A stretch of 64,000 bases of DNA from an uncultured Clostridia bacterium. Lineage in GTDB: Bacteria > Bacillota > Clostridia > Christensenellales > CAG-917. Below, piece by piece: positions 3,617 to 62,888 of the stretch. Location of the stretch: assembly GCA_947581925.1 (NCBI GenBank), contig CANPWB010000003.1:10723-74722 (forward strand), read 5' to 3'. The notes below the pieces were generated by a model. The model had not been told where the DNA came from and did no database searches. It saw only the letters and a list, made by a program, of their open reading frames with translations. Each line of letters opens with the position of its first letter. Within the stretch, counting starts at the first letter, position 1. The translations under genes were made by a program, and so were the position numbers.

Positions 3617-4140
3617 CTCGGAATGACAAGTTATAATTCCTGTCATGTTGAGCAAAGTCGAGGAAACCCCTAGTCCGAGCGATTAACGCACCCTCTGCCC
3701 GAGCTTTCTTATACACGCCGTCTGCCTTGTCCGAGCAACTTCGCGGAGCAAGCGGTTTTACCCTAAGTACGCAGTGAGGGCGGAGCTCTGTTTTATTTCC
3801 GCCCGAACAAGTGGCATAATTGCAGACTTGTCTGCACGACGTATCTCGGTGAGCGAGCGCAGCCTCTTCCCGCCCTGCCGCGGCGTAATGCTTGGGCTGT
3901 GTTTGCGCTCGAGCGCAAACCGTTAGTGAGTACGGGGAGGGAGGGGAGTCCTGAGTGCAGTGTGGCGGAACGTTATGCTAATACTAATACCCAAACTCAT
4001 CGCTGCACGTAACGAAGGGAGAGGTTGGGTCTTTCACTCCAATGTCTGAGATACTAACGCTTTTCGTGCTTGAACTCTAGTAACGCTTGTCCGGGCATTC
4101 TCATACACGGGCAGAAGCCTTCGTCCGAGCGTCCTCATAT
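3617..4140 (+). repeat. Composite repeat, copy 2 (partial C, E and long extension blocks)
   Basis: Blocks at ~3729-3783, ~3853-3910, ~3943-3964 and ~3997-4060 match the reverse complement of blocks in 6178-6862. Confidence 0.88.
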
Positions 4141-6139: not shown

Positions 6140-7112
6140 GCACGGACAGAGGCGCATATATAACTCCTGCACGTCGTGCGTTAGTATCTCGGACATTGGA
6201 GTGAAAGACCCAACCTCTCCCTTCGTTACGTGCAGCGATGATAACGTTGGTCTGAGGGATAAATGGGGTCCCCACGAAATTACGCAGTGATTTCGTGGGG
6301 TAAAGGCACACTGCACTCAGGACTCCCCAGCTATACCCCACAAAAAATACTTTTTGCGGGGACCCCGATCTAAAACCCCATAAAATTCGTTCCACTCACG
6401 TCACATTTCTCTACTGCGACTCATCGTCACTCATTATTATGGGGACCCCGATGTAGCCCAGACAAGCTTTACATTAGAGCGCAAACACAGCCCCTGCGTT
6501 ACGCCGCGGCAGGGCGGGAAGGGGCTGCGCTCGCGCTTGCATTTGCTCAGAGCCCGCAACCATTGCGGAGCAAGGTCTTTAAGGGCTCACCGCAAAATGC
6601 TGCGCCACTCCGCGCGTGAAAATCGCTTGTCGCAGATTCCTCGCGTGAAAGAAAGTCAAGAGGTCATTCAAAGACGCTCGTCATGGCTCGGCGATTTTCA
6701 CGCTTGGGATATGCGGGCTAAGCCCGCTTTTTCTTTTTACTAGCGTTTGAGTGAGAGATAGCGGGGTCCCCAAAATAATTACGAAGTGATTTTTTGGGGT
6801 GCAGACCCGCCCTCACTGCGTACTTAGCGTGAAACCGCTCGCTCCGCGGCATCGCTCGGACAGGGCAAAGTCCGTATATAGGGGCGCTCGGACGGAGGGT
6901 TCGTTAATTCGCTCGGATTATACGTCCGTCAATATCAAGCTCTCACGCAGAAGTTTGACGCTTGCATACAAATCAAAAACGCGAGAGACGGCAAGAATTT
7001 GCCTAGCTCGCGTTTTTAGCTTGGGGTGCAGGGGTTGAAAACCCTTGCTGAGGTGTGGGGCAGCGCCCCACAGATAAGCATACAGGGAGTGGGGCGGAGC
7101 CCCACATGGAGC
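6140..7112 (-). repeat. Composite repeat, copy 3 (longest: A-B-E plus extension blocks with nested D hairpins)
   Basis: Reverse-complement matches to copies 1, 2 and 8. D hairpins are inserted at ~6265-6302, ~6334-6453 and ~6763-6800. Confidence 0.9.
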
Positions 7113-15731: not shown

Positions 15732-16068
15732 GTGGGCTACGCGCCCACACGCCCCACGCAGGGCTGCGAGCCCCGCACCCCGACAAAGGGCGATTTGCCC
15801 TTTGCGATCCCAAACTAAAAAAACGCGAATGTGGCTCTTTCATCGCCTACATTCGCGTTTTTGATTGTTTGCAAGATCAAAACTCCTGCGGGAGAGCTTG
15901 AAATTGACGGACGCAGTGGCCGAGTTGTTTTTGGCAAAACCGAGGGATTTCTCGACTTCGCTACGCTACGCTCGAAAAGACACCTTATATACACGCTGTC
16001 ATGTTGAGCTTGTCGAAACATCCCCCTGTCCGAGCGAATTAACGCACTCTCTGTCCGAGCTTTCTTAT
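15732..16068 (+). repeat. Composite repeat, copy 4
   Basis: A, B, C and E modules directly after the gyrA stop. Confidence 0.88.
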
Positions 16069-18867: not shown

Positions 18868-19390
18868 AGGGCTACTCGCCCACACCTCGGCAAGGGGTTT
18901 CACCCCCTGCACCCCAAGTTAAAAACGCGAGCTAGGCGAATTCTTGCCGTCGCTCGAGTTTTTGATTGTAATGCAAGCGTCAAAACTCCTGCGTAAGAGC
19001 TTGATATTGGCGGACGTTTTATCTGAGTGATTAACGTTACCTTTGTCTGAGCTATATTGGGGCCCCATAAAATTGCGTAGCGATTTTATGGGGTTTTAGA
19101 TCGGGGTCTCCACGAAATTACGCAGTAATTTCGTGGAGTATTAAATCGGGGTCCCCATAGAAATGAGCGAAGCGAATTTTATGGGGTATAACCGGGGGAT
19201 TCCTCGACTACGCTCGGAATGACAAGTTTATTATAGATGTCATGTTGAGCGGAGCGCAGCGAAGTCGAAACATCCCCTAGTCCGAGCGTTTAAACGTACC
19301 CTCTGTCCGCGCGCACCTATACCCGCTGTCATTTCGAGCTTGTCGAGAAATTCCCTAGTCCGAGCGAATAAACGCACATTCCGTCCAAGC
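18868..19390 (+). repeat. Composite repeat, copy 5 (with three tandem D hairpins)
   Basis: A, B, D x3 (~19058-19190), C and E modules. Confidence 0.9.
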
Positions 19391-19502
19391 ATGCTTTTTT
19401 TGTATAAAAATCGGGAGGGGCGGAAGTTGCCTCTTGAAATATGATTGAATAAGCTGTATTATATTTATATATTATGCCATAAATGGCGTTTGGGAGAGAA
19501 TT

Positions 19503-22764: not shown

Positions 22765-22824
22765 CGCTTTGACGCATATCATTTGAAATAAGGGCTTATG
22801 CCCGAGATATATGGGAGAAAAACT

Positions 22825-24426
22825 ATGGAAGAGAAAAAGAACAAAGTTTATGATGTAAACTATGAGAGGATGGATCTCACGGCATACGAGGGCGAAGAGC
22901 CATATATTTTCGTGAGCTATTCGCACGCGGACACGGAGCAGGTCTACAAGATCCTCAAAATTCTCGACAGAGAAAAATACCGCTTTTGGTATGACGACTC
23001 TATGGAGATAGGCGAGGACTTCAGAGCGGAGCTCAGGTTGAGGATAGAGCAATGCAGCGCATTTTTGCTTTTCATATCCGACTCCGCGCTTGAGTCAAAA
23101 TATTGCGGGATGGAGATCATCACGGCATTCAAAAACGACAAAAAGATATATCCCATATATTTGAAAGACAACGTGAAGATCCCCGCGCCGCTCAAGATGA
23201 TCCTCGAAAACCTGCAACACGTCAAGGGCGTAGATTCGGGCAATTACGAGAGACAGATAAACAAGCTCATCTCGGGTCTGCCCATCGAAACCATGCGCAG
23301 CCTCGAAGTTGAGGACGGCGTCCTTGTAAAATGCAAGGACGGCAGCGTCACTTTGAGCGTCCCCTCGGGCGTAAAAGTCATAGGACAGGGCGCTTTCAAA
23401 AATTGCGAACGCCTTGAAAAACTCATCATCGGCGACGAAGTCGAGCAATTGCGCGGAGAGGCTTGCCGCGGATGCAAATCCATGAAGGAGCTCACCCTTC
23501 CCGCAAATGTGCGCAAAGTCGGAGAGAGCGCATTCCGCGATTGCATTTCGCTCACGTCTCTCGTCGCGGAAAACGACGATCTCGAGCTTGGCGAGCGCGC
23601 TTTTGAAAACTGCGCGTCCCTCAAAGATGTCCGGCTGAAGGACGGCATGACGGAGATCTACGGCGGCGTTTTCAACTCCTGCAAAGCGCTTGAGGACATA
23701 AAACTCCCCAAAAAGTTGACGATACTCGGCGAAAGCTCATTTGCAAATTGTGTAACCCTCAAAAAAATAGATATCCCCGAAAACGTCACAAAACTTGACG
23801 ATATGGTGTTCAACGGCTGTATCGAACTCTCCGAGGTAAAGTTGAAGAACAACATCACCAAAATAGGCAAAAACGTGTTCAAGGATTGCAAGTCGCTCAG
23901 CACATTCTTTATCCCCGCCTCCGTGTCAAGCATAGGTTCGGGACCGTTCAGAGGCTGCTGCAACCTTCAAAGCATCGTCGTGGACCTAAAAAACAAGTGG
24001 TTCAAATCTCTCGACGGCATACTTTTCAACAAAAACAAGTCGACCATCATTTGCTATCCGGCACAGCGCGAGGGCGACGTCTACCAGATCCCCGACTCGG
24101 TCACCGTGATAAGCGACTGGGCGTTTTGCGAGTGCATATCCCTAAAAAAGATCGAGATCCCCGATTCCGTCAGCGAAATAGGAGAGGGGGCGTTCTACAG
24201 TTGCTCTTCGCTTGAGGAGATTGTCTTGCCGGACTCCGTCGTCAAAATAGATGATACCGCGTTTAGAGGTTGCTCCTCGCTCAAGCGGATCGTCATTCCC
24301 GACTCCGTGCACGAGTTCGGCTGGGGATTGTTCAACGGTTGCGACGATGTCGAGGTCATATGCGGCATTCACTCCGACGCCGCCAAGTACTGCGACATCA
24401 AGGGCATCAGACACACTAAAGGGTAA
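22825..24426 (+). CDS. Soluble TIR domain + BspA-type leucine-rich repeat protein
   Basis: YIFVSYSHAD..WYD..FISDSALESKYCGMEI (TIR with putative catalytic Glu), followed by many 23-aa IPxSVxxIGxxAFxxCxSL repeats; no TM segment or signal peptide. Confidence 0.9.
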   Translation: MEEKKNKVYDVNYERMDLTAYEGEEPYIFVSYSHADTEQVYKILKILDREKYRFWYDDSMEIGEDFRAELRLRIEQCSAFLLFISDSALESKYCGMEIITAFKNDKKIYPIYLKDNVKIPAPLKMILENLQHVKGVDSGNYERQINKLISGLPIETMRSLEVEDGVLVKCKDGSVTLSVPSGVKVIGQGAFKNCERLEKLIIGDEVEQLRGEACRGCKSMKELTLPANVRKVGESAFRDCISLTSLVAENDDLELGERAFENCASLKDVRLKDGMTEIYGGVFNSCKALEDIKLPKKLTILGESSFANCVTLKKIDIPENVTKLDDMVFNGCIELSEVKLKNNITKIGKNVFKDCKSLSTFFIPASVSSIGSGPFRGCCNLQSIVVDLKNKWFKSLDGILFNKNKSTIICYPAQREGDVYQIPDSVTVISDWAFCECISLKKIEIPDSVSEIGEGAFYSCSSLEEIVLPDSVVKIDDTAFRGCSSLKRIVIPDSVHEFGWGLFNGCDDVEVICGIHSDAAKYCDIKGIRHTKG

Positions 24427-28551: not shown

Positions 28552-29012
28552 ACGCTCGGACAGAGGTTGCGTTAAATGCTCAGGCAAGGGGAGGTTTCCT
28601 TTTACCCCACAAAAACATTTCATATTTTTGCTGGGACCCAGATATAAAACCCCATAGAAATGAGCGAAGCGAATTTTATGGGGATCCCGATGTCGCTAGG
28701 ACAGGGGGTTGCATTAATTGCTCGGACTAGGGGGCTCCTCGACGTTGTTCGGAGTGACACATTATATTACATGTCATTTCGAGCGTAGCGTAGCGAAGTC
28801 GAGAAATCCCCTGGTTTAAGTAAAAAGCGCTCTGACAATACTAACATCATTATCAAGCTCTCCCGCAGGAGTTTGTACCATACACACAATCAAAAAACGC
28901 GCGAACTAGTGACAAAAGTCACGACGTTCGCGCGTTTTTAGCTTGGGGTGCAGGGGACGAAGTCCCTTGCCGGGGCATGGGGCAGCGCCCCACATTGGGC
29001 GCGCAGTCCTAC
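28552..29012 (-). repeat. Composite repeat, copy 7
   Basis: Reverse-strand A, B, C, D and E modules starting just after the stop of the 29020-30486 gene. Confidence 0.88.
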
Positions 29013-29019
29013 GCAGTAC

Positions 29020-30486
29020 TCAGTCTTTCTCGTGGGCGACCTTGTAGTAGCTGTAGTAGTTTCTTGCCTCGCAGTCAAAGGTGCCGTCTTTGTCTATCAA
29101 GATGGCGGTGCAGCCGCGCTGGGCATGGTCCTTGACGCTCACGTAGGCGAGATAGTCTATGCTCATGCCGTATGTCAAGCGGATGCCCTTATATTCTATG
29201 GAGAAGTTGTTGTAGTGGTCGTGTCCGCAGAAGGTGCCCTTCAGACCGTGGTCGAGCCCCGCCTCGAAGAAGCGGTCCTCGTGATAGCCACAGAACACGC
29301 CGTAGTTGGCGACGCCGTTCTTTTTGCTCTGTTTTTCACCTCTGACGCCATAGTAGTAGGTGGCGTCCGCCTTCTCGCCAGTATATGTGCCGCCGTCGTC
29401 GTATTTCTCTTTGTATTCGTCAACGCTTACGGTGAGACCGGGCGTCAGCGCCGACTTTGTGTCGCTGCCGTTATTGTCGATGAATGCCTTCCATACGCGC
29501 CTGTATTCTCTGAGCGGGATGTGGAAGAACGCCATATTTTTGACATATTCGTCTCCAAAGCCGTTTTCCTTGTTTTTGGCTTTGAGCTTGTCCATCTCCT
29601 CTTTGTACCAATCCACCTGCGACTGATGGATGTTGTCGTATTTCCACACGAGGCCGAAATAGTCGCCGTCGATGTAGGAGTGGCTGTCGAGAATGACGAT
29701 GGATTGAATGTATTCGCCCTTCGTATTCTTGACGTTGATGATGTGGTTGCCAAAGCCTCTGTCGATATGGTTGAAATCGTCGTCCTCGTCAGCGAACCCG
29801 CGTTTGTACAGGCAATATTTAAAATTGCTGTTCTCGTAATATTCGCTTATCTCCTTGCGGGAGTACATGCTGTACGCCTCGGTGTCGTGGTTGCCGTATG
29901 CAAACGTCCAATATACGCCGAGGGACTCCATCATATTGGAGAATACCTTTGTCGCGTTAAGGTTGTTGAAGGTGCCCGCCTGGAAAGGCACGGGGTAGGC
30001 GATGTCGCCCGTCACGACAACAAGGTCGGGTTGCTCCGCGCGTATCATAGTCTCAACGGCGTTCATAGCCCAGGCGTCTTGTTGATGTGAAAAACTGCCT
30101 GCGCCGATATGTACGTCCGTGAATTGCAACACCTTGAACTCTGTCCTGTCGTCGGGAAGCTCAAAATACGTCCACTCCTCATCAAATTGAGGTTTGAGCT
30201 GCTCGTGATCGTATTTGACAGGCTCCATGCTCTTTGCCTGCTTGATGAGTCCCTTTGCGCCCACCACGTTGCCGATGGCTACGCCCGACACGAATATCGC
30301 AAGCACAAGCACGATCGCGCCCGTGATGATGAGCGCCTTTATAGTGCGTTTCTTTTTCTGCTCGGGAGTAAGCTTTTTGCGCTCTTTCTTCTTCTTTTTC
30401 CCGTCCTTTGAACCCTCTTCGGGAGCGTCGGACACTTCTTGATCGTCGAACTCGACAAGCTCTTCTTTTTTGATCTCTTCGCTCAT
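29020..30486 (-). CDS. Membrane-anchored calcineurin-like metallophosphoesterase
   Basis: DVH, GD, GNHD, FFHIP and GHDH motifs; one N-terminal TM helix after a basic stretch. Confidence 0.92.
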   Translation of the reverse strand: MSEEIKKEELVEFDDQEVSDAPEEGSKDGKKKKKERKKLTPEQKKKRTIKALIITGAIVLVLAIFVSGVAIGNVVGAKGLIKQAKSMEPVKYDHEQLKPQFDEEWTYFELPDDRTEFKVLQFTDVHIGAGSFSHQQDAWAMNAVETMIRAEQPDLVVVTGDIAYPVPFQAGTFNNLNATKVFSNMMESLGVYWTFAYGNHDTEAYSMYSRKEISEYYENSNFKYCLYKRGFADEDDDFNHIDRGFGNHIINVKNTKGEYIQSIVILDSHSYIDGDYFGLVWKYDNIHQSQVDWYKEEMDKLKAKNKENGFGDEYVKNMAFFHIPLREYRRVWKAFIDNNGSDTKSALTPGLTVSVDEYKEKYDDGGTYTGEKADATYYYGVRGEKQSKKNGVANYGVFCGYHEDRFFEAGLDHGLKGTFCGHDHYNNFSIEYKGIRLTYGMSIDYLAYVSVKDHAQRGCTAILIDKDGTFDCEARNYYSYYKVAHEKD

Positions 30487-30774
30487 AATAAATCCCCTTA
30501 CGAAGTTATATTATATTCATTATATACCGCCCGCGCGCACATTTCAAGTGCGGATTTTAGGATTGACTTAATTTGTATGAGGCGGATATAATATGTGTGC
30601 ATCAAAACATTCAAATGAAAGCAAAACGACATATGCCGCATATAATTTCAGATGTCAACTTCTTAAGCTCAAGGGCGATATTTATGACATGAAACAAAAG
30701 CCGAATACTTGACAATAAGACCCGCCTAAAGCTAATATTTAAGCATATAGTGAGTTGTATCTAAGGAGAAACAT

Positions 30775-33330
30775 ATGATAGACAAATATTTGCAAGGGTA
30801 TGAGTGTGAAAATTGCGCGGCTCCGCTGGACTTGACAACGGCAAAAAACGGAGTCATACGATGTCCCGCTTGCAGACGGGAGATCCCCGTGCCGGACAGC
30901 GATTGCTCCAAGGAGCTTTTGGCGCAGCTGAGCATTGCGGACCACGAGCTTGCCAATTGTGAATTTGACAGAGCGTACGAGGCGTACAAAAAGGCGACGG
31001 AGATGGACTCCGGCAACGCGCTCGCGTATTTTGGCAAGGCGCTTGCCAGGGCGCAGATACAATATCTTAAGGACGAGGCAAACGATCCGCCCGTTATGCG
31101 TCCCATATGCCATCGCATATCGCGCGAGATGTTCACGGAAAACGCGGATTATCTCCAGGCGGTCAAGCTGGCGGGGGACGAGCAGAGCGCCGTCTTGCGC
31201 GCCCGCGGCAGAGAGATAGACCAAATACAAGAGACGTTTTATGATTTGCAAAAAAATGGCGTGGACTATGACGTTTTTATATCCGCCAAGATAAGCAGAC
31301 CGGATGGCTCATATACGGATGAAAGCCATGACGCAAGCAAATTGTATAGCGTCCTCAAGGACAAAGGGTTCAAACCATTTTATTCCGAAAACGAGCTGTA
31401 CAAATTTACAGGCAGCGATTATGAGGCGCACATCCTCTATGCGCTCACTGTATGCACAAGCATGGTGCTCATCTGCTACAACGAGAGCTACCTTGAGACT
31501 CCGTGGGTGAAAAACGAGTATATGCGCTATTCGGAGATGATCCGGAGAGGGCAAAAGGCAAAGGATTCGCTTGTCGTATGCTACAAGGGAGCGTGTATGG
31601 ACAGACTGCCTCATTATGACGGCAAGGTCGAAGGCATAGATTACTCCGGCAGTCAAGGCATGATGCTTGTGCTTGACCATGTCAAGCGCTGTAGCGACGC
31701 AGTCAAAGCAAAAAAGGCCAAGCAGGCGGAAATCGTCCAACAGACGGAAAAAGTACGGCAGCTCAACGAAGAAATACAACTGCAGAGGGCGGCAAACGAG
31801 GCAGAGCGTCTTCGCATGAAACAGCAAAAGGAGAAGGAGAGGATAGATAAGAAGAAACAAAGGAAAGAAGAAAGGCGGCAACGCAAAGAGAACAAGCGAC
31901 AGCGCAAAATTGAACTGGAAGAGTACGAAGTCCAGCGACAAAGAAAAGAGAGCATCACTGCAAGTGTGGTAGAAACGCTTTCTTTCGCGTCGATTATTTT
32001 GGGAGTGCTTGAACTTGCGGGACTCCTATTTATGATATCCTATCCGTTCAGCATACGCATAGTCAATCCCTCCCCAGAATTTACGGCATACGTTGCCGTG
32101 GGAGGTGTGCTTGCTGGGCTTATCCTGCTTCATTGTGTTGTTTGTTTTGTATGCTACAAACAAAACAATGGACTGATTGCAATAGGCACAAGCGTGTTAG
32201 TAGAGGGCATATGGGCGTTCTTTTGCTTTATGATCGGCTGGTATACCCACAATATGCACGATTGGATATGGGTTTATTTTTCCATTGGCGCAGTCATAGG
32301 AGGCTTGATCGTTTTGAACTGGCAAAGCTCCATCTTCGAGAAACAGAGCAATGGAGATACAAGTAGAGAAGATGATGGAATGATAGGGTTCACCGTTTTT
32401 GTGGCAGTCGTGGCAGCATTCTGTCTGTTGGGCGGCTGGCTGTATACGAAGCAAGTCGGTCTCAACGACGGTTACAGCGACGGATTCTATTATGACATAC
32501 TCGACGACGGGTCGCTGTCCGTATTTGTGCGCGATTATGACAGCGAAACGCTGGAGATCCCTGGCGAGATCGACGGCAGAGTGGTTGAAGTGTACAACGC
32601 TCCGATAAAGGGCGGCGGTGACAAATTGAAACATCTTATCATTGGCGAAGGGGTGCAAAAACTGGGGCAGGCAGCATTCAAGGATTGCGTCGGGCTTGAG
32701 GACGTCTATATGGCGGACAGCGTGCGAGAGTTTGACGGACAAATATTTGAAGGATGTTCCGAGCTTTCGACAATTTTGCTTTCGTCCAAGATGACCTATG
32801 TTGTCGAAGATATGTTCAAAAACTGCGTCTCTCTTGAGGACATACAGTTGCCCGATTCGATTTACGAAATCAGAGCGGGAGCGTTTGAAGGATGTTTCAA
32901 ATTGGCGACGATCAATTTCCCGGGAGACCTGACAATCATTGGAGAAAGAGCGTTCAAGGGCTGTGTCGCCATCTCCGAAATAAGTTTGCCTAACTCGGTC
33001 GAGAGACTTGGCGATAATGCGTTTGAAAACTGCCTCGACCTTGAGAGAGTCACTTTGTCTCAGAAACTTACTTTCATCGGCGCAGGCTGTTTCAAAAACT
33101 GTTCGTCCATAAAATCTATGTTCTTCCCGGACAGCCTGAACGAAATCGGAAGTTCGGCTTTTGGCGGGTGCAACATGCTGAAAGAATGTTATTTTGGGGA
33201 AGGAAGCAAGTGGTATTATGAATATACGCCTTTTATCATAACGCGCGAAGAGGACGCATTTTCTTGGAACGACGACATCAACATCATACTCTCGTTTTTG
33301 AGAGGAAACTATCACCTCTTCAAAAGATGA
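30775..33330 (+). CDS. Zn-ribbon/TPR/TIR/coiled-coil/5TM/LRR protein
   Basis: CENC..CPAC; TPR-like FDRAYEAYKKATEMDSGNALAYFGKALA; TIR YDVFISAK..PFYSE..PWVKNEY; five TM helices; C-terminal BspA-type LRRs. Confidence 0.88.
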   Translation: MIDKYLQGYECENCAAPLDLTTAKNGVIRCPACRREIPVPDSDCSKELLAQLSIADHELANCEFDRAYEAYKKATEMDSGNALAYFGKALARAQIQYLKDEANDPPVMRPICHRISREMFTENADYLQAVKLAGDEQSAVLRARGREIDQIQETFYDLQKNGVDYDVFISAKISRPDGSYTDESHDASKLYSVLKDKGFKPFYSENELYKFTGSDYEAHILYALTVCTSMVLICYNESYLETPWVKNEYMRYSEMIRRGQKAKDSLVVCYKGACMDRLPHYDGKVEGIDYSGSQGMMLVLDHVKRCSDAVKAKKAKQAEIVQQTEKVRQLNEEIQLQRAANEAERLRMKQQKEKERIDKKKQRKEERRQRKENKRQRKIELEEYEVQRQRKESITASVVETLSFASIILGVLELAGLLFMISYPFSIRIVNPSPEFTAYVAVGGVLAGLILLHCVVCFVCYKQNNGLIAIGTSVLVEGIWAFFCFMIGWYTHNMHDWIWVYFSIGAVIGGLIVLNWQSSIFEKQSNGDTSREDDGMIGFTVFVAVVAAFCLLGGWLYTKQVGLNDGYSDGFYYDILDDGSLSVFVRDYDSETLEIPGEIDGRVVEVYNAPIKGGGDKLKHLIIGEGVQKLGQAAFKDCVGLEDVYMADSVREFDGQIFEGCSELSTILLSSKMTYVVEDMFKNCVSLEDIQLPDSIYEIRAGAFEGCFKLATINFPGDLTIIGERAFKGCVAISEISLPNSVERLGDNAFENCLDLERVTLSQKLTFIGAGCFKNCSSIKSMFFPDSLNEIGSSAFGGCNMLKECYFGEGSKWYYEYTPFIITREEDAFSWNDDINIILSFLRGNYHLFKR

Positions 33331-33408
33331 TATGCCGCGGCGGGCAGACGTGCGCGAACAGCGGGCTTGTTTTTGCCCCGTATATGTAAACAAAAAGGAA
33401 GAGGATAT

Positions 33409-34323
33409 ATGTTGTCTGCACACATTTACGATGTGATCATTGTCGGAGCGGGACCTGCGGGGCTGACGGCGGGGATATATGCTTGCAGAGGCGGGCTGAA
33501 AGTAGCCGTCGTAGAGGGCGGCGCGACAGGCGGGCTTGCCTCCACCGCGGCTAACGTGGAAAACTATCCCGGCGTGAAAAGCACGGACGGCTTTTCGCTC
33601 TGTTACGCTATGCTCGAGCAGTGCAAGGAGGCGGGCGCGGAGCTCGTATTCGACAGGGCGACGGAGTTCGACCTCGAGGGAGAGAGCAAGCGCATAGGGC
33701 TGGCGAGCAGAGAGGAGCTTTTTGCAAAGCGCGTGATACTCACTGTTGGAGCGTTCCCTCGCAAGCTCGGCCTGGAAGGCGAGGATAGGCTTGCGGGCAG
33801 GGGGATATCCTATTGCGCGACTTGCGACGGTGCGCTGTTCAAAGGCAAGACGGTCGCGGTAGTGGGCGGCGGAAATACCGCGCTCGAGGACGCGTTTTAT
33901 CTTGAGAAACTCGCGGCGAAAGTATATCTGATACACCGTCGCGACGCGCTGAGGGCGGACGCCGTGTACGCCGAGAGGCTGAAGGCAAGCGGCATAACCC
34001 CCGTTTGGGACAGTGTGGTCTCAAAGCTCGTCGGAGAGGAAAAGCTGACGCAAATCGAAGTTAAAAACGTCAAAACGAACGCATTAAGTGAGCTTTTGGT
34101 CGATTGCGTGTTTGTAGCGATAGGGCAGACTCCAAACACTGCCGGACTTGAAAAGCTCGAGAAGGACAGTTACGGCTATATCAAAACGGACGAGGAAATG
34201 CGCACGAATATAGACGGCGTGTATGCCGCGGGCGACGTAAGGAGCAAGTCCCTTCGTCAGATCGTCACCGCATGCGCCGACGGCGCCGTTGCCGCCTCCT
34301 CCTGCATAAAAAGTCTGATGTAA
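33409..34323 (+). CDS. trxB: Thioredoxin reductase
   Basis: GAGPAGLTA, SYCATCDG, GGGNTA, AAGDV. Confidence 0.95.
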   Translation: MLSAHIYDVIIVGAGPAGLTAGIYACRGGLKVAVVEGGATGGLASTAANVENYPGVKSTDGFSLCYAMLEQCKEAGAELVFDRATEFDLEGESKRIGLASREELFAKRVILTVGAFPRKLGLEGEDRLAGRGISYCATCDGALFKGKTVAVVGGGNTALEDAFYLEKLAAKVYLIHRRDALRADAVYAERLKASGITPVWDSVVSKLVGEEKLTQIEVKNVKTNALSELLVDCVFVAIGQTPNTAGLEKLEKDSYGYIKTDEEMRTNIDGVYAAGDVRSKSLRQIVTACADGAVAASSCIKSLM

Positions 34324-36557: not shown

Positions 36558-39500
36558 ATGAAGGTTTTGAAGGCGACATTGGCATTTGTGATGGGACTCG
36601 TGCTCGGCATAATCCTGCTTGTGCTCGCGATAGGCGGCACGGTCGTCGCGCTCGGCACGACGAGGACGGTGGGAGAGCTCCAATCCGCCGTCACGGATAC
36701 CGAGATAATCTCATCCGACAGCGAGCTTTTCGGTCAATCCGTGCTCGAGGCGGTGCAGAAGGCGCTCAACGATTATCAAAATTTCGACAATATCACGCTG
36801 AAACTGCTGTATGACCGCTATGGCATAAATCTTCTCAAGGGCATAAGCGGGCTGGATTTTTCAAAAAAGAGTTTTTATGACACTCCTCTCACGGAGATCA
36901 TAAACGACTTGTCCCTGCTGCTTGACGACATCTATCTTTCGGATATAGAGTCTATCGCGAAGATGGATTTTTCAAAATACAATCTGCCCATATTGGACGA
37001 GAATATGAACGTAGGCCTCACAAAGGCGATCGACAATATAATGGGGCTTGTCAACGACAACTTGTCCATTCGTACGCTCAAGGCGAAACTCGGTTTTGAC
37101 ATAGGCACGGAGGACAACGGCATTTTGAAGGCTATGCAGGACGTCCGCCTCAACGAGTTGGGCGGACTCATAGACGTATTGCCCATAGGCGTATTGCTCA
37201 CCGCGGACACGGACACCTATCTGCCGAAAGGCGAAATGCAGGTTTACGTAAACGTCGAAGGCACCGCCGAGGAGTGGGAGGAAGTCACTGCTGAGGAGCT
37301 GTCAAACCCCGACTACGCTGCTCCTTTGGGCGTAGAGACCTACATCTCGGGCGGCTTGAATGACGAACTCGTTGAAAAGGAGCTCAGATATTATAAAAAA
37401 GCTGACTCAGAGCCTTATGTGGACAACTCCTGCTACAATGAGGGCTGGACTTGTCCCGAGGGTGTGAAAGTATTGCGCCACAGGTTTTATAAACAATTTG
37501 ACGGCGACGGGAGCGCAGACGGGAAGTATTATGTCGTCTCATACGCCAACCGCGTCAAGACTTTTGACAATGCCGCAAATATTTACGCTTTGATAGTGAA
37601 AGATTTTGTGTCGCTCGACGATATATTTGTCAGCGAGACGGGCGCAAAGCTTGACAAGACGGGTGTCACGAGCGGCAAGCTCGATCTGAGCAATACGGAC
37701 GTCTACTATTTTGAAAAGGCAAAGGAAGGCGAAGAGGGAGCGACGGACAAGTATGTCTTGAGCGACGATTATTCCATTCTCGAAAAAGAGATGAAGAAAA
37801 ACGATATGCTCCGCGTCCCCGACGAGCCCGGCGAGGACGAAGAGGGCAACCCCGTGGAGCCCGCTCACCCCTACATCAATGGGCGCGCGAAGTATGTGCG
37901 CATACATTTGGGCGAGGCGTCGTCGCTTTTGCAATATCTCAACTATTTGACGATCGGCTACATTCGCAACGACACGGACAGCGTGCTTAAATCTTTGCGC
38001 ATAGGCGACATTATAGACACCAACGATCCCGACGTCGCGGACATTCTCAAAGCCCTCAAGGACAGCACCCTCGACTCAATAGGCGAGGACATCAACTCCA
38101 TTCCTTTCGGCGACATGTTTGAACCCGGCGACAGCAAATTGCTCAACGCCATCAAGGATTTCACGCTTGAAAATATGGATGAAAATATAGACTCCCTCAA
38201 GCTGGGCGATATCCTTTCGGAAGAGGACAAGCAGGACAACCAGCTCATCCAAGCGCTTGACGCAAGAGGCTGCACAATAGGAAATATAGGCACCGCGCTG
38301 GATCAACTCACGGTCGGCGAGCTGCTGGACGTGAAGTATGACGTGTACGAAAAAGACGACGCGGGCAATTATATCAAGATCCCCGTCTACGTCAAAATAA
38401 ATCAAGACTTGCTCGATATGGAAAGCGATCCCGACAAGTCCGAAATGTTCGAGCAAGTGTTCGCAAACGTTTATCGACCCGACAAAAACGGAGAAGACGG
38501 AGTTTTGCGCCGCGGCAATTATACTCCCGCCGACGAGGAGACAGGATCCCCCGAGGAATTTGTGGAAGCCGCCGACGGCGAATATATCGAGACGTATTAC
38601 TATCTGTATCAAGATGAGTCATACTTTGATGAGCATGCCGAAGTCGAGCGTTTTAAACGGCAACCCGTGGCAGAGGGAGAGAGTCAAACCGCGCTCGCGG
38701 TTCAATCGCTTGCGCGCCGCGGCGTACCCGCGCTTGAAATGGGCGACTACATCAACGAACTGTCCATAGGCGAATTGATGGAGGTGGACAGCGAGTCCTC
38801 GCAACTGTTTAAGACCCTCGCAAGAAGGGGCAGCACGATGGACAGCATATCCAAGGACATTGACGACCTCGAAGTCGCCGATATGATAGAGATAGGCGAC
38901 GACTCCTCAAAGATCATGCGATCCCTCAAAGCGAGGCATTGCAAGATCGGCGATATGGCGACAATTACGGACGAGTTGACCCTCGATGAGATACTCGACA
39001 TCACGCACGATACGTATGTGCAAGCCGATGACGGCATATATGTGCATGTGACGGATCCCAACAGTTACGTGCTCTATGACGAGACAAATCCCGACAACCC
39101 CGAATGGCGCACAAAATACGTGAAAGTTGAGAAATCCGAAGGCGAGGGAGAATATGAGTATGTGGAGTATGACCCCGAGGATCCGAAACATGAGGGCAAG
39201 ACGCTCTACGTCCACTCCGCATATTATACGCTTTACAATCCCGCCGTACACACCTCTACCACATTGACAATTGGGAAAGGCGAAACGGCAAAGACGGTGC
39301 ATATCCAACCTAAGGCAAATGACGAAGACGCTATCGCGCGGTTTAACAAAATAGAGTACGACGCGTCGCAAGATCCGACGGGAGAAGAAGAGCCGTCATC
39401 CAAGATATTGCAGCGTTTTGCGGGCTCCACAATGGGCGACTTTTCGGGCGCCTTTGACGAGCTCATGCTCTCAGAAGTGCTTGACATAGACCCCGACATC

Positions 39501-41198
39501 TACGCCGAAGTGGGCAAAGACGATATCAAACCTGACAATGACGAAGGCGGGACAGGGGAATACTATTATGGCGAAACTTATGAGGAAAGGGAGCGCCTCT
39601 ACAAGTATGACGACGTCAACAGCGTGTACAGCGTGGCGAGCCAAGCTGATCTGAAGGAAGCGGCGGCGGGCAAGCTGACGCTCTATCGCGTGGAGAAGTC
39701 GGGCTCTTCGACGTCCATTCTCAAAAAGCTCGCCTATGTCAAAGTCAACGAGATGTCCGACGCCCTCGAGACCGTCATGAAGGATATGATGCTCTCCGAG
39801 ATCATCGACATAAACAAATATGACGCCATCGATTCGAGTGGACTTGAGAAATATACAAATCAATCTACGGAGGGGCTTGAAAATAGTCGTTTCTTCGTTC
39901 CGTGGGACGGAAGCTCAGAGATAGACGGCAAGCCTATCGTCTATGTGTACGAGAGTACGGGACAATATATTATGAGGGCTTACTATTATCACCCGATAGA
40001 CGAAAAAAATGCCAAAGAAGTAGAAGAATATCTTGGAGAAAAACAAACAGGATTTTACAAATATGTGAAATATGAAGACCCACAAGGAAATTCGGTAAAG
40101 GAAGCCGCAAACTTGAAAAAAGCTCTTATAGACGGCAACGTGTATTATTCTGAAAACGAGAAGGGGCCTTTTGATCATAATATCGCTCTTGCAACTTATT
40201 TGATCCGCCAAAACAATTGGGACAATCTTTATTACAGGGAAACGAGCTCGGAAAAATTGGATGGAGAAAAATATTTCGAATATTTCTCTTATAAAAATAT
40301 CCCCTCTGACTATAAAGAGAGGATTTATGTAGAAACTTTAGGCAAGAAGACCTTCCCAGATCCGTTGTCTAAAGAGCCCAAGAATATAGAGAGCTATTAT
40401 AATCCTACTAATCCTGCGCATGCCGAATTGACAAAATATGTTAAGTTGGAGGACGGACAAAACCATATCGTGCCACTCAACGAGGACGGATATGATTATA
40501 AAGAAGGTATAGATGTGAGGATCGGCGCGCAATATGCCCAGGAGATAATGATCAAATATCCCGATTTGCCCGCCGCGCAATCAGCCCTCAAAGAGGAAAG
40601 CGAATACAGTGAGTACGAAAAACAAGTGGGTTGCGACAAAGTCTATGTGTATACGCCCGCCACAAACGAATATGTCTTATACAGTGAGTCGGCAGATTAT
40701 GGCGATGATGCGGAATACTACATCAAGAAGTTGGGCTATATCGCGCAAAAAGGGGAAGTTTTCTACAACGAGAATTCTGCCGATAAAACAGCGTTAAACT
40801 TCCAAATAATCCAAACGATGGAAAGAGAGCGCAGCTCCAAAGTGCTTGCGTTGCTTGCGGATAAGACCGTCAACGATATGAACAGCACGATAGAAAATGC
40901 GACGATAGGCGACTTTATGGACGTCACTCCGGGCACTATCTTCGACGATAAGGATATCCGTGAGTCGCAACTGCATGACCTCGGCAACACGCTTGCAAAC
41001 AAACTGGCAACAATAACCATAGGCAAATTGATAGAGTGGGGCAGCATCACCACGATAGACCCCTCCGTCCTCAACATTTTGCACGAAGTCACGCTGACGG
41101 ATTTCTTCTATGCGCTGACGTATGATGACAGCACAGGTATGATCGCATTCGATATGGCAAAGTTGTACGGCATCGAATCTGAGTCAACTGCGCCATAA
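36558..41198 (+). CDS. Large acidic membrane-anchored repetitive protein, 1546 aa
   Basis: N-terminal TM helix; recurring LxIG(D/E)(I/L)...S(K/Q)(L/I)LxxL repeats with Tyr/Asp/Glu-rich inserts; AAGGAG SD. Confidence 0.85.
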   Translation: MKVLKATLAFVMGLVLGIILLVLAIGGTVVALGTTRTVGELQSAVTDTEIISSDSELFGQSVLEAVQKALNDYQNFDNITLKLLYDRYGINLLKGISGLDFSKKSFYDTPLTEIINDLSLLLDDIYLSDIESIAKMDFSKYNLPILDENMNVGLTKAIDNIMGLVNDNLSIRTLKAKLGFDIGTEDNGILKAMQDVRLNELGGLIDVLPIGVLLTADTDTYLPKGEMQVYVNVEGTAEEWEEVTAEELSNPDYAAPLGVETYISGGLNDELVEKELRYYKKADSEPYVDNSCYNEGWTCPEGVKVLRHRFYKQFDGDGSADGKYYVVSYANRVKTFDNAANIYALIVKDFVSLDDIFVSETGAKLDKTGVTSGKLDLSNTDVYYFEKAKEGEEGATDKYVLSDDYSILEKEMKKNDMLRVPDEPGEDEEGNPVEPAHPYINGRAKYVRIHLGEASSLLQYLNYLTIGYIRNDTDSVLKSLRIGDIIDTNDPDVADILKALKDSTLDSIGEDINSIPFGDMFEPGDSKLLNAIKDFTLENMDENIDSLKLGDILSEEDKQDNQLIQALDARGCTIGNIGTALDQLTVGELLDVKYDVYEKDDAGNYIKIPVYVKINQDLLDMESDPDKSEMFEQVFANVYRPDKNGEDGVLRRGNYTPADEETGSPEEFVEAADGEYIETYYYLYQDESYFDEHAEVERFKRQPVAEGESQTALAVQSLARRGVPALEMGDYINELSIGELMEVDSESSQLFKTLARRGSTMDSISKDIDDLEVADMIEIGDDSSKIMRSLKARHCKIGDMATITDELTLDEILDITHDTYVQADDGIYVHVTDPNSYVLYDETNPDNPEWRTKYVKVEKSEGEGEYEYVEYDPEDPKHEGKTLYVHSAYYTLYNPAVHTSTTLTIGKGETAKTVHIQPKANDEDAIARFNKIEYDASQDPTGEEEPSSKILQRFAGSTMGDFSGAFDELMLSEVLDIDPDIYAEVGKDDIKPDNDEGGTGEYYYGETYEERERLYKYDDVNSVYSVASQADLKEAAAGKLTLYRVEKSGSSTSILKKLAYVKVNEMSDALETVMKDMMLSEIIDINKYDAIDSSGLEKYTNQSTEGLENSRFFVPWDGSSEIDGKPIVYVYESTGQYIMRAYYYHPIDEKNAKEVEEYLGEKQTGFYKYVKYEDPQGNSVKEAANLKKALIDGNVYYSENEKGPFDHNIALATYLIRQNNWDNLYYRETSSEKLDGEKYFEYFSYKNIPSDYKERIYVETLGKKTFPDPLSKEPKNIESYYNPTNPAHAELTKYVKLEDGQNHIVPLNEDGYDYKEGIDVRIGAQYAQEIMIKYPDLPAAQSALKEESEYSEYEKQVGCDKVYVYTPATNEYVLYSESADYGDDAEYYIKKLGYIAQKGEVFYNENSADKTALNFQIIQTMERERSSKVLALLADKTVNDMNSTIENATIGDFMDVTPGTIFDDKDIRESQLHDLGNTLANKLATITIGKLIEWGSITTIDPSVLNILHEVTLTDFFYALTYDDSTGMIAFDMAKLYGIESESTAP

Positions 41199-41330: not shown

Positions 41331-41660
41331 TGCAGGGCTACTCGCCCCGCACGCCCCAATGTTGGCTCCTCGCCCACACCGCGGCAAGGGACTTCGTCCC
41401 CTGCACCCCAAGCTAAAAACGCGAGCTAGGCAAATACTTGCCGTCGCTCGCGTTTTTTGATTGTGTGTAAGGTACAAACTCCAGCGTGAGAGCTTTGATA
41501 ATTGCGTTTGTCTTGTCCAAGCGAATAAACGCAACCTCTGTCCGAGTGTGCCTGTACACGGACGGACGTATTGTCCGAGCGACCCCGCGGAGCGAGCGGT
41601 TTCACGCTAAGTACGCAGTGAGGGCGTGTCTGCACCCCGCGAAATCACTCCGTAATTTCC
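41331..41660 (+). repeat. Composite repeat, copy 8 (A-B-E plus first extension block)
   Basis: Includes TGTCCGAGCGACCCCGCGGAGCGAGCGGTTTCACGCTAAGTACGCAGTGAGGGCG, shared with copies 2 and 3. Confidence 0.88.
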
Positions 41661-42104: not shown

Positions 42105-42521
42105 TGGAGCCCCAAGTATACCCCACAAAAACACTGCGTATTTTTGCGGGGACCCCGATCTAAAACCCCATAAAACCGCTGCGCAATTTTATGGGGACCC
42201 CGATCTAAAACCCCACGAAATCACTGCGTAATTTCGTGGGGGACCCCGATATAGCTCAGACAAAGGTAACGTAAATCACTCAGACAAAACGTCCGTCAAT
42301 ATCAAATTCTCACGCAGGAGTTTTGACACTTGAAATCAATCAAAAAACGCGCAAATGTAGTGACTTTTGCCACTACATTTGCGCGTTTTTAGCTTGGGAT
42401 CGCAAAGGGCAAAGCGCCCTTTGCCGAGGTGTGGAGCAGAGCTCCATCTGGGGCGTGCAGGGCGAGTAGCCCTGCGTGGGGCGACGAAGTCCCTTGCCGA
42501 GGTGTGGAGCAGAGCTCCACG
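42105..42521 (-). repeat. Composite repeat, copy 9 (three tandem D hairpins)
   Basis: Reverse-strand A and B modules plus D x3 (~42118-42250); layout matches copy 5. Confidence 0.88.
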
Positions 42522-43441: not shown

Positions 43442-43752
43442 AGGGGATTCCTCGACTTCGCTACGCTCCGCTCGGAATGACAATAGTTGTCATGCTGAGT
43501 TTGTCGAAACATCCCCCTGTTTTACCCCACAAAAACACCGTGTGTTTTTGTGGGATAAAAGGAAGCAATCCCTGGTCTTAGCAAATAACTCAGACTATAT
43601 TTCCGTAAATATCAAATTCTCACGCAGGAGTTTTGGCACTTGCAATCAAATTCAAAATGCGCGAACTAGTGACAAAAGTCACGACATTCGCGCATTTTTA
43701 GCTTGGGGTGCAGGGGACGAAGTCCCTTGCCGGAGAGTGGGGCAGCGCCCCA
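43442..43752 (-). repeat. Composite repeat, copy 10
   Basis: A and B modules on the minus strand after the NUDIX stop, plus a C module. Confidence 0.85.
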
Positions 43753-62431: not shown

Positions 62432-62888
62432 TGTGGAGCTCCGCCCCACACCCTGGCAATGGGCTTCGTCGCCCCAAGTGGGGCTCTGCCCCACACGCAC
62501 CTATGTGGGCTACTCGCCCACACTGCGGCAAGTGACTTCGTTGTCCTATGTGGGGCGCTGCCCCACTCCCCGGCAAAGGGCGCTTTACCCTTTGCGATCC
62601 TAAGCTAAAAACGCGCAAACGTCGCAACTTTTCGTTGCTAGTTCGCGCGTTTTTTTGATTTGTCTGCAATGCCCAAAACTCCTGCGAGAGAGCTTTGATA
62701 TTAGCGTCACGCATTGTCCGAGGTTATTTACTAGAAACCCGGGGGATTCCTCGACTTCGCTACGCTACGCTCGGAATGACACTTAATATTACCTGTCTCT
62801 AGCTCGTCGAAAAATCCCCCCCTGTTCAAGCTAATTGTTTTTATTTGTCATTTCGAGCTTGTCGAGAAATCCCCCTGTCCGAGCTTTC
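62432..62888 (+). repeat. Composite repeat, copy 11
   Basis: Several A units, then B, C and E modules directly after the dapB stop. Confidence 0.88.

Follow-up and report, generated by a model that had tools for sequence, protein, structure and literature searches.

Introduction

To our knowledge, the known bacterial TIR (Toll/interleukin-1 receptor) systems sense intracellular events, and TIR enzymes are as a general rule activated by assembly, as seen for SARM1, plant TIRs, AbTir and Thoeris. In Toll-like receptors (TLRs), an outer leucine-rich repeat (LRR) domain and a membrane span are combined with a cytoplasmic TIR domain that acts as an adaptor. Single-protein TIR systems with transmembrane (TM) or TPR regions have been described in a 2024 survey as defending E. 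coli against phages, with the TIR active-site residues being required (PMC11350192), and the same survey remarks in its discussion section that bacterial TIR systems seem to lack the TM and LRR features known from TLRs. Here, we analyse a single gene encoding a protein of 851 residues, termed P0001, that is located within a stretch of 64,000 nt from an uncultured Clostridia bacterium (GCA_947581925.1, contig CANPWB010000003.1; this whole stretch is referred to as the window) and that is predicted to join an enzyme-type TIR domain, a five-helix membrane module and an outward-facing LRR domain in one chain.

P0001 shares individual features with each of these systems. Like the E. coli single-protein TIR systems, it combines a TIR active-site-type Glu, TPR-like helices and membrane parts in one chain and is encoded by a stand-alone, patchily distributed gene; unlike P0001, these systems exhibit no LRR and no predicted outside domain (PMC11350192), and PADLOC revealed no sequence-level link between them and P0001. 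With TLRs, P0001 has in common an outer LRR, a membrane span and a cytoplasmic TIR domain, but the TIR domain is N-terminal (reversed order), there are five TM helices instead of one, a signal peptide is absent and the C-terminal LRR is of the BspA-type LRR_5 class; P0001 furthermore adds a zinc-ribbon/TPR cap and a long stalk and keeps an enzyme-type Glu. An earlier sequence-only reading of this gene had proposed convergence on the animal TLR design: this holds for the layout, whilst order, TM number, signal peptide and LRR type differ, and the likeness is one of convergent layout rather than membership, P0001 not being a TLR. SARM1 and TIR-1 exhibit a close TIR fold and a helical-repeat region N-terminal to the TIR domain, which in P0001 could hold the TIR domain inactive; Pfam detects no ARM or SAM domains in P0001, which differs from SARM1 also in being membrane-embedded and in carrying an LRR. 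Thoeris ThsB is likewise a bacterial TIR protein with a W-x3-E type site, but no PADLOC ThsB model matches P0001 (these models match P0044, the product of a second TIR gene in the window) and hence P0001 is not ThsB by profile. Finally, the BspA-type LRR_5 surface proteins of gut bacteria (4fs7, 4gt6, 4h09, TpLRR, PcpA) share the LRR_5 repeats and their fold with P0001, in which the LRR is tethered by a C-terminal-out five-TM module to the TIR head rather than being secreted through a signal peptide. Full-text searches, in a collection without most subscription journals, and passages of PMC7075850, PMC11350192, PMC11237479 and PMC2858798 (the last of these has no bacterial content) yielded no description of a bacterial TIR-TM-LRR protein, although an earlier mention in a comparative-genomics supplement is possible.

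The TIR domain of P0001 and its putative active site

Structural comparison (VIA) of the modelled residues 163–310 gave Z-scores of 12.6–16.5 to solved TIR domains across the 50 rows shown, three of which correspond to MilB, a CMP N-glycosidase. The highest score was obtained for the SPARTA TIR-APAZ structure (8ifl: Z 16.5, rmsd 2.4 Å, 134 residues aligned), with SARM1 TIR (9mw2: Z 15.1, rmsd 2.2, 121/131 aligned, 21–22% identity), MyD88 (Z 14.9), RUN1 (Z 13.2) and AbTir (Z 12.9) also among the matches. A Foldseek search of the head against the PDB placed mostly TIR proteins at the top (SARM1, TIR-STING, TIR-1, MAL, SPARTA, MyD88 and AbTir), and Pfam family PF13676 (TIR_2) is carried by 38 of the 43 proteins listed (P0001, the query, included). 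In the model, residues 163–310 of P0001 adopt a flavodoxin-like TIR fold, as the sequence-only reading had anticipated.

A profile of the TIR region built from 77 family members identified the RUN1 TIR domain (6o0w) with an E-value of 1.3e-5 and placed W-V-K-N-E of the family over W-C-L-D-E of RUN1. This profile stems from a TIR-only alignment that replaced a previous one (A3), for which LRR and TPR hits dominated the search against PDB sequences. Since E248 is aligned with RUN1 E100, and the entry of the E100A mutant (7s2z) exhibits Ala in this very column, E248 corresponds by alignment to a residue of proven catalytic function, whilst NAD+ cleavage by P0001 itself is putative. Across alignments of 39 and 41 relatives, V245, N247, E248 and R251 do not vary, whilst W244 is conserved to at least 90%. 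These relatives were gathered through word-index and HMMER searches and not chosen by motif (P0036 and P0041 were omitted from both alignments, P0042 and P0043 from the first); conservation of the Glu residue is circular within the TIR-only alignment, where 76 added rows were picked by motif, and one of the two patterns used in the family scan likewise contains the WVKNE motif.

Remaining domains of the chain

The other elements named by the sequence-only reading (zinc ribbon, TPR-like helices, charged coiled coil, five hydrophobic helices and C-terminal LRR) were all recovered through alignments, Pfam and models (Table 1). Of the zinc-ribbon cysteines, C30 is invariant in 41 relatives and C11, C14 and C33 are at least 90% conserved, with the Pfam zinc-ribbon rows for P0001 being weak; the TPR_11 match is also weak (E 0.063), and positions 49–85 of the family profile match consensus TPR proteins. 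A protein-cluster search with residues 1–160 returned clusters of "hypothetical protein" only. The charged region that follows the TIR domain is modelled as one long helix, so that the coiled coil proposed for it is presumed; a two-copy complex prediction for residues 1–395 scored 0.00 in two runs and provides no evidence either way.

Kyte-Doolittle (KD) analysis identified five hydrophobic segments (396–427, 434–464, 466–488, 496–516 and 533–559), to which helices 401–428, 434–460, 466–491, 494–525 and 534–563 of the model correspond, and the five helices are conserved together with sequence motifs in P0002–P0004. No N-terminal hydrophobic segment was detected: the maximum KD value outside residues 390–565 is 1.46, and hence P0001 has no signal peptide, again as first read. 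The LRR domain begins approximately 10 residues past the last TM helix and is matched by Pfam LRR_5 (PF13306) with an E-value of 1.4e-49 (167.6 bits). A Foldseek search with the whole model gave LRR proteins only, with 4fs7 (E 1.9e-11) and 4gt6 (E 1.9e-10) in a range extending to 1e-7 and with the closest solved structures being annotated as gut-bacterial cell-surface proteins. Rows for LRRC8 were dismissed due to TM-scores of 0.07–0.10.

The whole-chain AlphaFold2 model, calculated from the alignment with 39 relatives, exhibits a mean pLDDT of 83.2 and comprises a confident head (1–310) and a confident LRR solenoid (571–851); a model of the head alone reached a pLDDT of 91.1 and a pTM of 0.88. 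The reading frame is uninterrupted over 851 codons. Upstream lies an AT-rich spacer of 288 bp (GC 0.37–0.39), in which the promoter scan found 7 sites against 4.3 expected in shuffled sequences. NCBIfam yielded nothing useful for P0001. Judged from its sequence, the gene is intact and accessory, and it encodes a polytopic membrane protein.

Orientation of the TIR and LRR domains across the membrane

The number of TM helices that precede the LRR was compared over 17 proteins in which TM helices occur before an LRR (P0001–P0004, P0013, P0018, P0037, L002, L006, L007, L010, L024, L039, L042, L044, L055 and L073), with helices being counted as 19-residue windows of KD ≥ 1.6. This raw rule gave an odd number in 14 of the 17; after alignment-based curation, the number was odd in all 17 (five helices in nine proteins, three in three and one in five), although this curation is a matter of author's judgement and the members are interrelated, so that such counts overstate their independence: the set amounts to some eight separate architectures (5, 5′, 3, 3′ and four times 1). 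Three cases were curated. In P0004, the fourth helix reaches a KD value of only 1.43, but is aligned with the conserved fourth helix; in P0002, the extra segment (KD 1.83) represents a short motif which P0001 lacks and whose counterpart in L007 and L010 is charged; and in L044, the extra segment (1.67), with its three acidic residues, is part of a soluble helical region, where the homologue L073 exhibits a single helix. TM tails that lack an LRR contain from one to six helices, of either parity.

The distribution of charge points in the same direction: summed over the 17 proteins, the loops and their 15-residue flanks contain 102 Lys and Arg residues on the side of the TIR domain and 29 on that of the LRR, and for P0001 alone the corresponding numbers are 6 and 2. 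The head would itself be cytoplasmic, given that the C4 ribbon needs a reducing compartment, that NAD+ would be the substrate and that an export signal is absent. Because of the odd parity across relatives, the bias of Lys and Arg and these requirements of the head, the TIR domain of P0001 is predicted to lie inside and the LRR outside the cell, an assignment that we consider highly probable and that agrees with the opposite faces deduced from the odd helix number in the sequence-only reading.

A head family with interchangeable tails

P0001 belongs to a family defined by its ZnR-TPR-TIR head, in which a CxxC...CxxC zinc ribbon, a TPR-like region, a QYLKD..PICH hairpin and a TIR domain with WVKNE follow one another in this order within the first ~300 residues. 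At least 584 relatives of this head occur in bacterial genomes sampled as one per species; among the head matches listed, nearly all are from gut Clostridia assemblies, with up to three copies in some genomes. We retained 79 relative loci, of which 10 were lost to contig ends or could not be recovered: the 69 evaluated comprise 10 with TM helices followed by an LRR, 35 with TM helices and no LRR, 15 with an LRR and no TM helices and 9 with neither. Further tails found on the head are RCC1 repeats, DUF6273 and Sel1. Relatives with a single putative TM helix and a large C-terminal domain (RCC1, DUF6273) were not accepted as membrane receptors, as their sole hydrophobic segment sits among TPR repeats. 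In 24 of the 80 clustered loci (the 79 relatives and that of the window), the family gene has additional family or LRR genes beside it, from one to four in number. A search for paralogs with a common head and variable ends had been suggested on the strength of the sequence: in the genome of the window (1.74 Mb, 83.6% complete) the head occurs as a single copy, and the variety of tails was encountered instead across the wider family.

The five-TM module is rare, being found in 9 proteins among 1.84 billion representatives: six of these exhibit the TIR head and three do not. Of the latter, P0046 has a short N-terminus, P0048 another N-terminal domain and P0051 two more helices. As the module is also found without a TIR head in three of the nine representatives, the 5TM-LRR_5 segment is by sequence a portable unit itself, and the head is probably a fixed output or regulatory unit that evolution has joined to many tails. 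The N-terminal domain of P0048 (residues 1–330) is also found in P0025 (again residues 1–330), in both cases followed by its own zinc ribbon and without a Pfam match; it takes the place of the TIR head before the 5TM-LRR in P0048 and precedes a TPR-TIR-Sel1-LRR chain in P0025.

Exchange of the 3′ cassette and variability of the site

Among 24 genomes of the same genus and 16 of the same order, a full-length copy was found only in one genome of the genus, G007, the closest relative, where it encodes the 904-residue P0002; another genome, G016, contains an open reading frame (ORF) of 518 residues with the TM and LRR portions only. Comparison of the two full-length genes reveals a synonymous divergence (dS) of 0.095 for the ribbon-TPR region and 0.026 for the TIR domain, rising to 0.436 in the stalk, 1.31 in the TM module and 0.61 in the LRR, with a ratio of nonsynonymous to synonymous divergence (dN/dS) of 0.19–0.35 across all domains. 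Identity to G007 is 90–100% across the metallophosphoesterase gene (29020–30486), the spacer that follows it, the head and, after 33300, the reductase gene, with values of 90–98% for the two flanking genes; it breaks sharply at about 31800 and about 33300, between which it is 66–88%. The jump in dS and these sharp breaks between near-identical flanks and head indicate that the cassette from mid-stalk to stop codon has been exchanged by recombination. Positive selection was considered as the origin of the divergent LRR and rejected in view of its dN/dS of 0.19.

The sequence-only reading had taken an AT-rich middle of the gene as a sign of module shuffling. The TM part is indeed lower in GC, by a small margin in total content (0.46, compared with 0.48 for TIR and 0.54 for ZnR-TPR) and more clearly in GC3, the content at the third position of codons (0.49, compared with 0.61–0.66 for these two parts and 0.61–0.72 in neighbouring genes), and we set GC content aside as too weak a sign by itself, since the T-rich codons of hydrophobic residues depress GC. 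Shuffling as such is nevertheless borne out by far stronger evidence, namely the many tails joined to the head, the occurrence of 5TM-LRR without TIR and the recombined cassette.

The insertion site is variable as well. In contigs of other sequencing runs (a different study of the same habitat, matched at 80% likeness, so that they may come from related species), a G007-like allele was found in X5 (one contig of 3085 letters); the segment 30561–33429 is replaced by 1307 unrelated letters in X8 and also in X5, there with a short side; and 231 letters lie between 30576 and 33581 in X6. Within ~6 kb of the metallophosphoesterase gene, 20 further genomes of the genus contain no family gene, with two of these stretches ending at contig ends, and in G053 a reductase-like gene follows the metallophosphoesterase gene after 518 bases. 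A metagenome scan yielded no additional alleles, its one match being a distant relative with 34% identity. On this comparison of sequences, the P0001 gene is accessory and its insertion site variable.

Genomic neighbourhood and a second TIR gene

The genes around P0001 encode a transporter-like membrane protein, a CrtO-like acyltransferase, a GT4 glycosyltransferase, a DUF998 protein, a metallophosphoesterase, a TrxB-like reductase and a DUF1256 protein. Since no conserved neighbour is common to the window and four other five-TM loci, the P0001 gene appears to function on its own. In the list of open reading frames, the reductase gene begins with a TTG at 33367, whilst the ATG at 33410 that follows GGAAGAGG looks like the true start and would leave a spacer of 79 bp past the P0001 stop codon.

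P0044, whose gene lies 6 kb upstream of that of P0001, is the sole other TIR_2 match in the assembly (TIR_2 E 2.1e-19, LRR_5 E 1.2e-79) and is matched by PADLOC ThsB models (E 2.6e-9); its head falls outside the ZnR-TPR-TIR family. The other PADLOC match in the area is an amylase, to a candidate model. No match to SIR2_2, the ThsA-type domain, was found in the 83.6%-complete genome of the window, other ThsA types being outside this search.

Several further observations concern the surroundings. An ORF of 1546 residues (36558–41198, forward strand) exhibits one N-terminal hydrophobic segment and acidic repeats, without Pfam or PADLOC match. A family of intergenic repeats composed of GC-rich hairpin modules (pieces of 60–136 nt, 61–96% alike) is spread over the window (Table 1) and is also present in G007; one copy is found just downstream of the metallophosphoesterase gene, at a place where the depth of contigs from other runs jumps to 550–1020. 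LRR_5 is abundant in the genus: the LRR of P0001 has 12 matches in its own genome and up to 11 in relatives (G002–G016), several of them in ORFs of 1100–2260 residues (own genome, G000: contigs C1, C4, C9, C19 and C20).

Table 1. Coordinates of the P0001 gene, its encoded domains and other features (positions in the window unless a locus is named)
Feature	Position	Strand	Basis
Coding sequence, 851-residue ZnR-TPR-TIR / coiled coil / 5TM / LRR_5 protein (P0001)	30775..33330	+	ORF, translation, Pfam, model
Shine-Dalgarno sequence AAGGAGA	30763..30769	+	read directly; 5 nt upstream of P0001 ATG
Two sigma-70-like promoter matches	30563-30592 (11/12), 30709-30738 (10/12)	+	consensus scan only
C4 zinc ribbon, residues ~9-38 (C11, C14, C30, C33)	30799..30888	+	conserved cysteines; short strands in model
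TPR-like helical motif, residues 46-92	30910..31050	+	weak Pfam match, family profile, model
Conserved beta-hairpin (QYLKD...PICH) and two helices leading to TIR, residues 95-160	31057..31254	+	alignment, model
TIR domain, residues 163-292; last helix continues into stalk	31261..31650	+	Pfam, Foldseek, VIA, profile
Glu248 codon (W244-x3-E248), aligned with catalytic Glu100 of RUN1	31516..31518	+	alignments, TIR profile
Presumed coiled-coil stalk: one long helix rich in Lys, Arg, Glu and Gln, residues 293-379	31651..31911	+	model, pLDDT 72-80
Conserved five-helix transmembrane module, residues 401-563	31975..32463	+	hydropathy, alignment, model
BspA-type LRR_5 domain with N-terminal cap, residues 571-851, predicted on outer face of membrane	32485..33327	+	Pfam, model, parity, charge
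Hyper-divergent cassette versus G007 (66-88% nt identity)	31800..33300	+	aligned locus, dS
Second TIR-LRR_5 gene, P0044, 542 residues, no TM	22798..24426	+	Pfam, PADLOC
Intergenic repeat copies	2241-2636, 3617-3783, 6777-7072, 15755-16066, 18870-19396, 28568-28999, 41355-41657, 42118-42472, 43479-43752, 62545-62832		
SPFH and Zn-ribbon loci	L005:4362-7949, L013, L017, L018, L022, L037, L045, L046, L050, L054, L055, L064, L065, L068, L070, L072, L074-L077, L079, L080		

Proposed mechanism and alternative explanations

We propose that P0001 is a one-chain TIR sensor-effector, in which an event at the outer LRR or the membrane module would be converted into NAD+ cleavage by the cytoplasmic TIR domain; our confidence in this proposal as a whole is evenly balanced. 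A stimulus at the LRR or at the membrane module, candidates for which are a phage part at the membrane, a competitor's protein or envelope damage, would alter the packing of the chains, the stalk would relay this change to the heads and the TIR domains would assemble. Assembled TIR domains would then cleave NAD+, leading either to NAD+ depletion or to an ADP-ribose-derived signal: direct depletion is the simpler guess, as no ThsA-type partner was found. As so few residues separate the LRR from the last helix, its place in a monoderm cell would be beneath the wall, and it would meet things arriving at the membrane rather than distant surfaces. A stronger version of this proposal, in which P0001 is a true bacterial transmembrane innate-immune receptor whose outer LRR sees a phage or competitor component prior to or in the course of entry and switches the TIR NADase on by way of the five-helix module and the stalk, with this signalling from outside to inside having arisen independently of animal TLRs out of the same pair of domain types and with the cassettes being strain-exchanged alleles of specificity, is possible but in our judgement doubtful.

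A number of observations weigh against the sensor-effector proposal. On the whole protein, the Pfam TIR_2 match reaches 25.1 bits, below the cut-off of 28 (the same stretch scores 29.3 bits, above this cut-off, in the six-frame genome search), and Foldseek E-values of the head to TIR structures lie at ~2e-3, none being ≤ 1e-3. PADLOC returned no family at E ≤ 0.01 for P0001, the best rows being Cmr5 (0.059) and PDC-S66 (0.35), and the neighbourhood is formed by housekeeping genes and is not a defence island. Positive selection on the LRR is not apparent at the level of the whole domain, the model is of low confidence in its TM part (block-mean pLDDT 38–73), and to these are added the occurrence of membrane-related genes beside many relatives, of LRR_5 tails without TM helices and of an extra hydrophobic stretch in P0002, each of which is taken up below with the explanation that it favours.

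The layout could be as proposed and yet serve envelope upkeep or surface display, with LRR_5 binding a wall or membrane component or another cell and the TIR head acting as an assembly scaffold or as a regulator linked to the membrane-repair genes (PspA/ESCRT-III-like and SPFH) that adjoin many relatives. In 22 of the 79 relative loci, the neighbours of the family gene include one that encodes an SPFH domain (Band_7_1) and a double Zn-ribbon, and in 8–10 loci the family gene is accompanied by two Snf7-like genes (8–9 loci), a gene of ~105 codons and an AAA ATPase (10 loci; Vps4_C in L017), although the Snf7-like Pfam match is weak (18.8 bits against a cut-off of 27.3). This set may constitute a membrane-remodelling operon tied to the TIR family, and such neighbours hint at membrane upkeep no less than at defence. 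PMC11237479 was considered as a precedent for the combination of TIR, Snf7 and Vps4 and rejected, as the "Tir" of that source is the CesT/Tir chaperone and not Toll/IL-1R. Upkeep would also be in keeping with the resemblance of the LRR to gut-bacterial surface proteins, with its purifying selection and with the housekeeping surroundings of the gene. However, the loci of the window, of G007 and of four other five-TM proteins are without SPFH, Snf7 or AAA neighbours, an invariant catalytic-type Glu would be needless in a pure scaffold and a position under the wall would be a poor one for an adhesin; the presence of the gene in 1 of 24 genus relatives, with replacement or absence elsewhere, is moreover a misfit with a core role. 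We regard this explanation as unlikely for P0001.

Alternatively, the LRR could be cytoplasmic, with the hydrophobic block serving as an even or re-entrant anchor, or as a membrane-damaging effector switched by the TIR domain, and with no sensing from outside to inside. LRR_5 without TM helices in 15 of the 69 relatives, and also in neighbouring P0044, implies that such an LRR often works inside the cell, and the 35 relatives with TM helices and no LRR indicate that TM parts stand alone as tails. The extra hydrophobic stretch before helix 1 of P0002 would make the helix number even were it to span the membrane, P0003 exhibits a similar stretch (KD 1.58), and the low confidence of the TM model leaves room for a different topology. 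Against this stand the odd helix number in the whole curated set, whereas TM-only tails display both parities, the bias in Lys and Arg, and the nature of the extra stretch itself, a motif charged in L007/L010 and missing from P0001; P0051, in spite of its two further helices, is again odd (seven by eye). A cytoplasmic LRR is in our estimate quite improbable. A decaying or chimeric remnant devoid of function, as the mosaic history of the gene and the lower GC3 of its 3′ two thirds might suggest, is hardly credible in view of 851 open codons behind a strong ribosome-binding site, a dN/dS of 0.19–0.35 in all domains against G007, two models that are both confident outside the membrane part and an architecture kept in six of nine representatives.

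Conclusions

In P0001 and a few relatives, an enzyme-type TIR domain is joined to a membrane module and a predicted outward LRR. The head family to which they belong is a large, unnamed group of gut Clostridia, with at least 584 genes in species representatives, and merits a description of its own. If both the layout and the coupling of the sensor-effector proposal prove true, P0001 would show that bacteria sense at their surface, be it for immunity or for surveillance of the envelope, and would be a clear case of convergence in the design of receptors. It would also be a system with an output head that is retained and a sensing cassette that is visibly exchanged from strain to strain.

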